Shown here piece by piece: positions 29,313 to 60,501 of a DNA stretch of 64,000 nt. The stretch is from a virus (lineage: Duplodnaviria; Heunggongvirae; Uroviricota; Caudoviricetes). The first letter of the stretch is position 1; each line of letters begins with the position of its first letter. A program made the position numbers and the translations under genes. The stretch lies in the IMG/VR virus record IMGVR_UViG_3300031133_000383, positions 346,635-410,634 of that record. One strand, given 5' to 3'. The notes beneath the pieces were generated by a model that was not told the DNA's origin, did not search any database, and was given only the letters and a program-made list of their open reading frames with translations.

Positions 29313-29386
29313 TTCTCGTTAGTTTAACGGTAGAACAGCGGCCTCTAAAACCGTGTATGCGGGTTCGAATCCCGCACGAGGAACCA
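29313..29386 (+). tRNA. Amber tRNA (anticodon CTA)
   Basis: TTCTCGT/ACGAGGA acceptor, loop CT-CTA-AA (CTA at 29345-29347), GCGGG-TTCGAAT-CCCGC, ACCA. Confidence 0.85.
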
Positions 29387-42527: not shown

Positions 42528-42603
42528 GTCCTTTGTAGCTCAGATGGTAGAGCGGGCGTTAGAAGACGCCGCGTCATAGGTTCGATTCCTATCGGGGACA
42601 CCA
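42528..42603 (+). ncRNA. tRNA-like RNA with 6-nt anticodon loop (TAGAAG), bulged acceptor stem, encoded CCA
   Basis: GTCCTTTG/CGGGGAC, GGCGT-TAGAAG-ACGCC, ATAGG-TTCGATT-CCTAT, ACCA. Confidence 0.75.
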
Positions 42604-59054: not shown

Positions 59055-59390
59055 ATGCTTGATTTAGATTTGTCTTTTGAACAACAACGCAATCGTTTTG
59101 AACGCCATCATAAATTGCAGTCGCCTGCATTTTCTGACTATACTCGAACCGAAACAGGCTATGCTGATCAGAACCTTGATTGTATTTTTAAAGGTTGGCA
59201 AATGGCTATGAAAGCTCAACCTTCTGATGAAGTTACGTTATATTTTAGTGTGACTTATGGTTGGCTTTTTGAATATATTGAAACAGGTAGTGGTGTTGAA
59301 TCTCCTGATTTTGAAGGTTGTGATGGTGAGGAACAAGCTATTAATTGGGCGAAAGAGCAAGGATTGATCATCGTCAAAATAGAAAATTAA
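59055..59390 (+). CDS. Hypothetical protein
   Basis: AAGGA RBS. Confidence 0.75.
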   Translation: MLDLDLSFEQQRNRFERHHKLQSPAFSDYTRTETGYADQNLDCIFKGWQMAMKAQPSDEVTLYFSVTYGWLFEYIETGSGVESPDFEGCDGEEQAINWAKEQGLIIVKIEN

Positions 59391-59533
59391 CAACTTGATA
59401 AAAAACCAGCATCTGTTGGTTTTTTTCTATCCTGTATTTAGTAAAATAACCGTATACAATTTTTAATATTTAAAACACACATATAGTTCTTTTCAGATTT
59501 TTTTTAAAAAATACGAAAATCATGAAAAAATGC

Positions 59534-59562
59534 TTGCCAAGGAAGATAGTTTTAGGTATTAT
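59534..59562 (+). promoter_or_regulatory. Sigma70-type promoter of minigene-repeat transcript
   Basis: TTGCCA-17-TATTAT. Confidence 0.7.
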
Positions 59563-59618
59563 AGACACATAAAGCGGCAAGCAAGAAACCTAATGAAAAC
59601 AATGATTTAAAGTAGATA

Positions 59619-59875
59619 AAGTGCCAGAGGTGAGCTACCAATGCAGTAATCGTCTAAAATTAGAGAACTTATTTATTATTGAATTTAGAAAAAACTTTAA
59701 CTCAAAAAACCTATTAAAAATTAAGTCTAGAGGTGGCTAAAAATGTAAAACTAATCCAATATTAGATGACTACTATTAGATAAGATTATGAATTTATTAA
59801 CCTTTAAATTAAAATCAATACAAGTGCTCGGAGGTGAGCCAGACATGCAGTAATTAACTAAAATATATAACTTTA
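59619..59875 (+). repeat. Three diverged 102-nt-period units, each AAGT..GAGGTG-N7-8-ATG(CAG)TAA
   Basis: ATGs at 59641, 59743, 59845. Confidence 0.8.
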
Positions 59876-59980
59876 GACTAATTAAACATAGATGAAAGAT
59901 GAGATAGAAAATCAAAACGGTGCGGTCTTACCAAATGACAATTTAACGTCTCCCACCTAATGATTGTCAAGTGTCAAAAG

Positions 59981-60010
59981 AAAGACCTAGCGATAGGTCT
60001 TTTTTTTATT
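59981..60010 (+). terminator. Intrinsic terminator
   Basis: AAAGACCTA-GCGA-TAGGTCTTTTTTTT. Confidence 0.85.
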
Positions 60011-60171
60011 TAAATTTCTACATTGAAATTTTCTTTCAGAATCAGAAAATGATTGTTATCCTATTGAATTTTTGGTATTATAATCATCTTGAAGCAGCCT
60101 TTACGTAAATCATCAACCACCAAAAGGAGACTTATTATGCTAAGGTTTTAAACTTAACAAGGTAAATTCAT

Positions 60172-60501
60172 ATGAGCAAAACAGTTAGACGCAAATCAGT
60201 AAACATCAGCTTCAAAAAAGGCTACCTCTTCGATATCAGCGATGTAGCTGTTAATGGACTGGTAGATTGCCGTTGGTGTCCTTCATTCAATGGCCTGTCA
60301 CTCAAAGAGGCTAATGCTAAAAAAATCAATTGGTTCCATTCCTGCAAAGGCCCAAGCGAACGCTACTGCCCCGGAAAAGGATACCGCCAAAAGTACAGGG
60401 CTAAGAGCAAACATCAACTCATCCGACAGTTGAAAGTGCTCGAAGACTACGAAGCCGTTCAAATCGACAAGGTTTGCTCGGATCATGAGTTCTGGTCATA
60501 A
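60172..60501 (+). CDS. Basic hypothetical protein (MSKTVRRK)
   Basis: AAGGT RBS. Confidence 0.75.
   Translation: MSKTVRRKSVNISFKKGYLFDISDVAVNGLVDCRWCPSFNGLSLKEANAKKINWFHSCKGPSERYCPGKGYRQKYRAKSKHQLIRQLKVLEDYEAVQIDKVCSDHEFWS

Follow-up and report, generated by a model that had tools for sequence, protein, structure and literature searches.

The window, by which is meant the whole stretch of 64,000 nucleotides that was analysed (positions 346,635 to 410,634 of IMG/VR record IMGVR_UViG_3300031133_000383), carries on its plus strand a predicted noncoding transcription unit at 59534-60010, made up of a promoter, three modules of about 102 nt, a hairpin, and a terminator. The promoter is of the sigma-70 type (TTGCCA-17-TATTAT, 59534-59562; 10 of 12 matches). 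The intrinsic terminator consists of a 14-bp stem and a T-run (59976-60007), and no ORF of at least 60 amino acids is present between promoter and terminator. These elements read as they had been described in an earlier note on this DNA, and the dedicated noncoding transcript which that note put forward, running from promoter to terminator, is supported at the level of prediction.

Module 1 has the core AAGTGCCA-GAGGTGA-GCTACCA-ATG-CAG-TAA (59618-59649), in which GAGGTG (59627-59632) precedes a mini-ORF of Met-Gln-stop, with ATG at 59641, followed by CAG and by TAA at 59647-59649. Module 2 (59724-59748) belongs to a start-stop subtype, GAGGTG-GCTAAAA-ATG-TAA, with GAGGTG at 59730-59735, a gap of 7 nt, ATG at 59743, and TAA at 59746-59748. 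The core of module 3 is AAGTGCTCG-GAGGTGA-GCCAGAC-ATG-CAG-TAA (59822-59853); its Shine-Dalgarno (SD) sequence reads GGAGGTG (59830-59836), the ATG is located at 59845, and CAG is followed by TAA at 59851-59853. The A/T-rich spacers of modules 1 and 2 occupy 59650-59821, broken by the module 2 core at 59724-59748, and they are poorly conserved and predicted to be unstructured. Downstream of the modules lies a two-tier hairpin (59919-59957) with the predicted outer stem GGTGCGG/TCCCACC, the inner stem GAC/GTC, and the octaloop AATTTAAC.

Positions and sequences of the three units match those given in the earlier note. By chance, one would expect 0.25 occurrences of GAGGTG-N8-ATG per window, and GAGGTG-N6-9-ATG followed by zero or one codon and TAA occurs at only these three sites in the whole record of 437,043 bp. 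The three-module array is a real observation, beyond what chance would give. The distance from ATG to ATG is exactly 102 nt in both intervals; the exact spacing emphasized in the earlier note holds for the window copy but not for its relatives, in which the modules are 98-113 nt apart.

Using a generic anti-SD sequence, the predicted SD/anti-SD pairing of the three modules was -10.6 to -15.4 kcal/mol, as compared with a median of -5.8 kcal/mol for 452 long ORFs of the element. The SDs of the modules are in the top 0.2-3 % of these ORFs by predicted pairing, in line with the proposal that they are among the strongest present; that of module 3 (-15.4 kcal/mol predicted) is beaten by one ORF of the 452. 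An SD signal is also clear in the long ORFs themselves, as an enrichment of G between -12 and -8. Start codons are 8 nt away from GAGGTG in the modules, as opposed to 4-5 nt in most real genes with that SD.

A search for the motif in relatives, as had been suggested for this locus, yielded 45 distinct homologous modules after duplicates were removed. They are located in related giant AT-rich elements and were obtained from three other IMG/VR records (ten modules in four loci of G001, three in G002, and two in G003) and from about ten metagenome contigs. The route of collection was by pattern scans and then by a sequence-only model, R1, with nhmmer. Since the seed patterns contained ATGCAG, there is ascertainment bias at the level of loci. 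Fourteen modules that fail the ATGCAG pattern and were found through their neighbours or the profile all retain a start codon and a stop within three codons (14/14).

Outside this group of elements, blastn of the locus against GenBank phages gave zero matches. Rfam 15, scanned with gathering thresholds and by E-value for the window and 11 related loci, returned only tRNAs and one SRP RNA, and IMG/VR scans with the flanking proteins did not retrieve useful relatives. The family was not found with a strict pattern in 185,579 species genomes, which gave only chance matches in high-GC MAGs. A loose pattern, AGTGC-N1-4-GAGGTGAGC, was discarded, as it mostly matched chance gene starts.

Some of the contigs with modules are very large (0.68, 1.54, and 1.86 Mb). 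The contigs concerned, Ga0308157_10000028 (0.68 Mb), Ga0247725_1000001 (1.54 Mb), and Ga0308158_10000001 (1.86 Mb), carry modules at several loci and are larger than any known phage; they could represent a megaphage, another giant element, or a mis-assembly. The IMG/VR "provirus" records G001 and G002 were apparently cut from two of these contigs, as judged from the sample number and matching module sequences.

Eight of the arrays stand alone, namely that of the window (W) and those at loci L175, L181, L002, L204, L214, L211, and L220. Their layout is that of a promoter-like site with a -35 and a -10 sequence separated by 17 nt (8/8 arrays), two to five modules spaced at 98-113 nt, and a terminator. 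The two-tier 3' hairpin, which the earlier note had not recognized, is common to all eight, with a conserved loop GACAATTnAnCGTC. Its inner stem covaries (GAC/GTC, GGC/GCC, AGC/GCT, GGCA/TGCC, and GACA/TGTC), and so does the outer stem, which is GGTGCGG/TCCCACC in the window and ACAAGGC/GCCTTGT, CAAGG/CCTTG, or GCAAG/CTTGT elsewhere. The tract CTCCCACCT, for which pairing with the SDs had been proposed, would form only 5 bp with them in the window and 4 bp in the orthologues. It was dismissed as an anti-SD: the tract is the 3' strand of the outer stem of the hairpin and reads GCCTTGT or CTTGT in other members of the family. In L002, L204, L214, and L220, a GC-richer domain of 100-230 nt is present between the modules and the hairpin, and in L220, an anomalous tRNA-like gene, detected with ARAGORN, is located between the promoter and the first module. 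In the G001 array at L003 (2480-2390, minus strand), two SD-led ORFs of seven or eight residues, MKEEFDDI and MKDEHDDL, lie between two modules; their peptide sequence looks conserved, unlike that of the mini-ORFs of the modules.

Conservation within the modules centres on the signals of translation. A start codon is present in 45/45 modules (44 ATG and one GTG), and the spacer between GAGGTG and the start is 8 nt in all but one of them (44/45). An in-frame stop follows within three codons in 44/45, whereas the other two frames have one in 4/45 and 2/45 and random spacer positions in about 35-52 %. Counted with the start codon, the mini-ORFs are one (n = 4), two (n = 11), three (n = 29), or five codons (n = 1) long. 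TAA is the stop in 40 modules, TGA in four, and TAG in one, mostly at codon 2, 3, or 4. The second codon is always a minor, G-ending synonym, CAG in 36 modules, CCG in four, and AAG in one (with a usage of 24 %, 7 %, and 19 %, respectively), while the third is free and takes at least ten forms (CAT, CAC, AAC, ATT, TTT, TCT, CTA, TTA, TAC, and TAT). Conservation of the peptide ends after Met-Gln. The earlier note had named the fate of start and stop in homologous arrays as decisive, and both the start and the early stop are kept across the 45 modules. Four distinct stand-alone arrays have one ATG-TAA-AA module each, i.e., W, L002, L175 (with its shortened orthologue L181), and L211, and except in W, it is the first module of its array. 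A module of L211 (3083, minus strand) ends in ATG CAG TAG, from which readthrough into a long frame is possible, and the element carries a UAG-reading tRNA.

The conserved core, with the consensus AAGTGCC-n-GAGGTGA-R-C-Y-A-nnn-ATG-CAG, is longer than SD, start, and stop. When positions are anchored on GAGGTG, hardly any variation is seen in the sequence GAGGTGA, C at +8 is present in 45/45 modules, A at +10 in 39/45, and CAG, counted by column, in 40/45. Upstream of the SD, GTGCC is found at -6 to -2 and a weaker YTAAT/TTAGA at -15 to -11. GCTACC, as seen in module 1, is variable across the family. The identity of cores between genomes reaches 97 %, a value obtained for the core of module 1 and a module of L003 in G001, at a spacer identity of about 35 % and an identity of 55 % for the neighbouring protein P0002. 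The claim that SD, spacing, start, and stop are what is conserved was correct as to these elements and too narrow in that conservation also covers GTGCC, C+8, A+10, and CAG. As judged from these alignments, selection is shown to act on the SD, its spacing, the start codon, and the early in-frame stop. The stop moves, the sense codon drifts, and the one change of start codon still leaves a start, which argues for selection on the start and stop of translation and not on a fixed sequence or a peptide.

RNAalifold predicted 0 pairs over the module cores, so that no conserved secondary structure was found there, and the core pairings GTGC/GCA, GCTC/GAGC, and GGT/ACC, examined by eye, fail across the modules. 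The whole transcript is predicted to fold no better than shuffled sequences (z-score -0.12). Accessibility of the SD windows is predicted to equal the average of the RNA, neither specially open nor closed. A Csr/Rsm-type sponge was rejected, as the lack of consensus pairing over the core leaves no presentation of GGA in a hairpin loop; the sole match to the Rsm clan is a weak, partial one to rsmX at 59380-59425 (15 bits against a gathering threshold of 56, E 3.4), upstream of the promoter and outside the transcript. Two further candidates, the core as a mimic of the sarcin-ricin loop and extended pairing of the core with 16S nucleotides 1501-1506, were dropped, as the relevant positions vary. 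Internal promoters in the spacers, looked for by eye as TATAAT- or TTGAAT-like words, are not conserved in the window copy.

A strong association was also found with tRNA genes on the same strand, and the family is carried in tRNA-operon transcripts as well. In seven cases, a module is located directly 3' of a tRNA and is followed by a terminator. The genes 5' of modules are those for tRNA-Leu(UAA), tRNA-Arg(UCU), and a tRNA with the anticodon CAT, to which the tRNA-like gene of L220 can be added. Modules are found between tRNAs in L216 and 5' of tRNAs in L003 and L217/L218, and one module is present in the 3' untranslated region of a protein gene. Their orientation is always that of transcription, and they are always inside promoter-terminator or tRNA units. 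The CAT-anticodon tRNA beside the modules is presumably a tRNA-Ile2, as judged by eye from its likeness to E. coli ileX. A link to initiator tRNA was dismissed, as the CAT-anticodon tRNAs look like tRNA-Ile2 and not like initiators.

The record that contains the window has a GC content of 31 % and 26 tRNA genes. CAG is used 8.4 times per 1000 codons by the element, and no gene for tRNA-Gln is present. Adjacent genes for the ribosomal protein bS21 (47.6 bits) and for the hibernation factor HPF (56.9 bits) were found in the same record (G000:C1:61515-62273), and the element also encodes two RNA ligases. Pth1, the RF-1 domain, and Terminase_6N are absent from the four records G000-G003; of the four, only G001 has a PTH2 gene, so that none is present in G000. 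The six ORFs flanking the array lack significant Pfam or PHROG matches. P0002 is near the array only in orthologous loci and has no family match.

The array RNA most likely works by engaging ribosomes, without making a product. Each module has the appearance of a complete but empty translation unit, with GAGGUGA, a fixed spacer of 8 nt, and an AUG that is separated from the stop by no, one, or two sense codons. At each module, ribosomes would bind, enter an initiation complex, and undergo termination immediately afterwards, in which case the output of the RNA would be the engagement of ribosomes and not a peptide. The modules themselves may be the payload, serving as a sponge or decoy with several sites at which ribosomes, or a factor acting on initiating or terminating ribosomes, would be held; we put the probability of this at roughly 40 %. 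The A site of ribosomes held in this way would show CAG or UAA, and the modules would be made in quantity from their own strong promoters and by hitch-hiking on tRNA operons.

Several observations favour this reading. Start, stop, and the 8-nt spacer are kept while the third codon is free; the genes of the element itself use SDs, and those of the modules rank near the top among them; the early stop is concentrated in the frame of the start (44/45 against 4/45 and 2/45); and start and stop are both retained in the 14 off-pattern modules. No conserved structure covers the core, and the RNA as a whole folds like shuffled sequences. Cores can be 97 % identical where the spacers and the neighbouring protein have diverged to about 35 % and 55 %. 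The orientation always follows transcription, and bS21 and HPF, both of which bind ribosomes, are encoded by the element. The number of modules, two to five per RNA, fits a payload, and so do the seven cases 3' of a tRNA, in which nothing downstream is left to protect. Against it stand the conservation of GTGCC, C+8, A+10, and CAG, none of which is needed in a generic ribosome-binding site, so that the core may have a reader of greater sequence specificity; the start codon, for which the distance from GAGGTG exceeds that of most real genes having this SD by 3-4 nt; the SD windows, which are predicted to be no more accessible than the rest of the RNA; and the very high RNA levels that would be required to titrate the whole ribosome pool. 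In addition, the homologues were partly collected with patterns that require ATGCAG. A more specific version, in which a phage-made translation decoy holds ribosomes with CAG or UAA in the A site and either baits a ribosome-dependent defence nuclease or factor of the host (RelE/YoeB-like) or parks host ribosomes while those of the element, modified with bS21/HPF, do the work, is improbable as it stands.

It is possible, though not probable, that the modules act as a shield, in which a module-bound ribosome would guard RNA that is otherwise not translated, such as pre-tRNAs, larger structured domains, or the 3' hairpin domain, against attack by an endonuclease or a 5'-to-3' exonuclease. STAB-SD and similar 5' stabilizers reportedly have such a role in Bacillus. 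A STAB-SD is a very strong SD within RNA that is not translated; ribosomes bind to it although no protein is made. It lacks start and stop codons and functions a single time, at the 5' end. The modules resemble these known stabilizers in carrying a very strong SD in an RNA that does not make protein, and many of them are suitably placed, 5' of the conserved hairpin in 8/8 stand-alone arrays, 5' of the GC-richer domain in the four that have one, and 5' of tRNAs in L003 and L217/L218. They differ in that the start (45/45) and the stop are conserved, neither of which a STAB-SD needs, and in being present in multiple copies, of which three to five exceed what a shield would require. Many are located 3' of a tRNA, at seven loci with only a terminator downstream, and the one in the 3' untranslated region of a protein gene fits a shield no better. 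An array of sequence-specific binding sites is unlikely. In this reading, the 30-nt core would be recognized by an RNA or protein that the element or its host supplies, for instance by a nuclease, by a translational repressor, or exclusively by those ribosomes of the element that contain bS21, and the likeness to a ribosome-binding site would be part of the recognition. Such an array would account for the conservation of positions that are irrelevant to ribosome binding, including YTAAT/TTAGA, and for the spacing, which is fixed at 8 nt, unlike in most real genes; repeated motifs with spacers are, moreover, the usual build of sponge RNAs. But the stop shifts among three positions and three codon types and the only change of start is from ATG to GTG, a pattern that is expected for translation and not for a fixed binding motif, and no neighbouring protein is consistently linked to the modules, given the restriction of P0002 to orthologous loci.

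Highly improbable is a type III (ToxI-like) antitoxin RNA or a repeat that functions at the DNA level (iterons, sites for protein binding, or a selfish module of the MITE kind, for example), even though the modules come in multiple copies and are found in several genomic settings. The ToxI alternative of the earlier note drew on AGGTGA, GCTACC, and TGCAG, which we take to resemble a ToxI repeat. It was rejected: Rfam gave no match to ToxI or to another antitoxin family with E values up to 10, the period of 98-113 nt (102 nt in the window) with non-conserved spacers differs from tandem repeats of 34-36 nt, and neither an endoribonuclease of the ToxN/AbiQ type nor any other family-matching protein is encoded by the six flanking ORFs (Pfam, PHROG); GCTACC, furthermore, varies. 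Against a DNA-level repeat, the strict co-orientation with transcription inside promoter-terminator or tRNA units argues for a role of the RNA. It is also quite unlikely that the modules are toxic minigenes of the lambda bar or CreT type, in which drop-off of peptidyl-tRNA would deplete a tRNA or overload Pth and shut down translation of the host. Minigenes inhibit most when they combine a strong SD with the shortest length (PMC2490762), and ORFs of one to three codons behind strong SDs are of that design; the second codon is always a minor synonym, CreT toxins act likewise (PMC8501985), and G001 has a PTH2 gene. However, a freely varying third codon, a common one, precedes the stop in 29/45 modules, so that the tRNA at the stop would not be tRNA-Gln, and the element uses CAG itself without encoding a tRNA-Gln; the sponge for tRNA-Gln that had been suggested is weakened on both counts. 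Consecutive rare codons as in CreT are absent, four modules are without any sense codon, Pth1 is lacking in all four records, and PTH2 is lacking in the record with the window.

The candidate ribosome-holding modules can be compared with several known systems. The lambda bar minigenes (PMC2490762; Hernandez-Sanchez 1998, cited there) are single copies with a defined rare codon, AUA. Like bar and engineered minigenes of 2-8 codons, the modules are phage-borne, consist of SD, AUG, one or two codons, and a stop, lack a useful peptide, and would be expected to take effect through translation; SD, AUG, a few codons, and a stop without a functional peptide were found in 45/45 modules. Unlike bar, they come in tandem arrays of two to five with a long conserved core and a variable last codon, and they have a start-stop subtype, a dedicated promoter and terminator, and a linkage to tRNA genes. 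CreT is a small RNA toxin, the activity of which depends on translation of a very short ORF behind a strong SD. Its single ORF contains two rare codons in a row (AGA or AUA), and the CRISPR-like CreA RNA represses the toxin together with Cascade (PMC8501985). The array shares with it the small RNA, the strong SD, and the very short ORF, whereas none of the modules has two consecutive rare codons; a CRISPR-like repeat was not seen in a repeat search of 59400-60100. In Start-Stop sites, a stop directly follows AUG, with an SD-like sequence upstream; they are bound by ribosomes and are located inside genes, where they tune the host ORF (Meydan et al., 10.1101/520783). Module 2 (59743-59748) and three other distinct modules have this form. 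The modules differ in being repeated in a stand-alone RNA, and start-stop is a minority subtype among them (4/45), the other 41 having 1-4 sense codons.

Minigenes that occur singly (lambda bar, CreT) have been described before, as have Start-Stop sites, while the tandem arrays are uncatalogued in Rfam. A literature search did not turn up a description of a conserved RNA in which empty translation units follow one another in tandem, which is equipped with a promoter and a terminator of its own, and which also occurs in tRNA operons. If the reading of the modules as a decoy is true, the array would be a natural multi-site RNA sponge with the ribosome itself as the ligand. The conservation of SD, start, and stop with a free peptide suggests that evolution can select the very act of ribosome loading. 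The elements that host the family carry bS21, HPF, many tRNAs, and other ribosome-related RNAs, and the modules may offer a handle on how host translation is taken over or buffered. The module is short (about 30 nt) and portable, and it could serve as a ribosome-loading part.

A number of smaller observations were made in the same elements. L207 (1-13904), L132, and L202 contain dense, repeated genes for tRNA-Leu(UAA), tRNA-Arg(UCU), and the ileX-like tRNA(CAT), with up to 10 tRNAs in 14 kb; these tRNAs decode UUA, AGA, and AUA, A-ending codons that are heavily used by the AT-rich element. In the window, a suppressor tRNA with the anticodon CUA is located at 29313-29386, and a tRNA to which ARAGORN assigns a four-base anticodon (agaa) is present at 42528-42603, next to a tRNA-Thr. 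G001 (IMGVR_UViG_3300024308_000302) encodes a bacterial small SRP RNA (RF00169, 58.7 bits; L003, 1923-2018, minus strand) just downstream of its module array, a structured RNA, and tRNA-Arg(UCU). Downstream of the array in the window, a TG-extended promoter (60053-60081) and a gene of 109 amino acids that starts at 60172 enclose a four-codon upstream ORF (60124-60151; AAGGAG-7 nt-ATG CTA AGG TTT TAA, Met-Leu-Arg-Phe-stop), the sequence of which is unrelated to the module family and which might encode a leader peptide.
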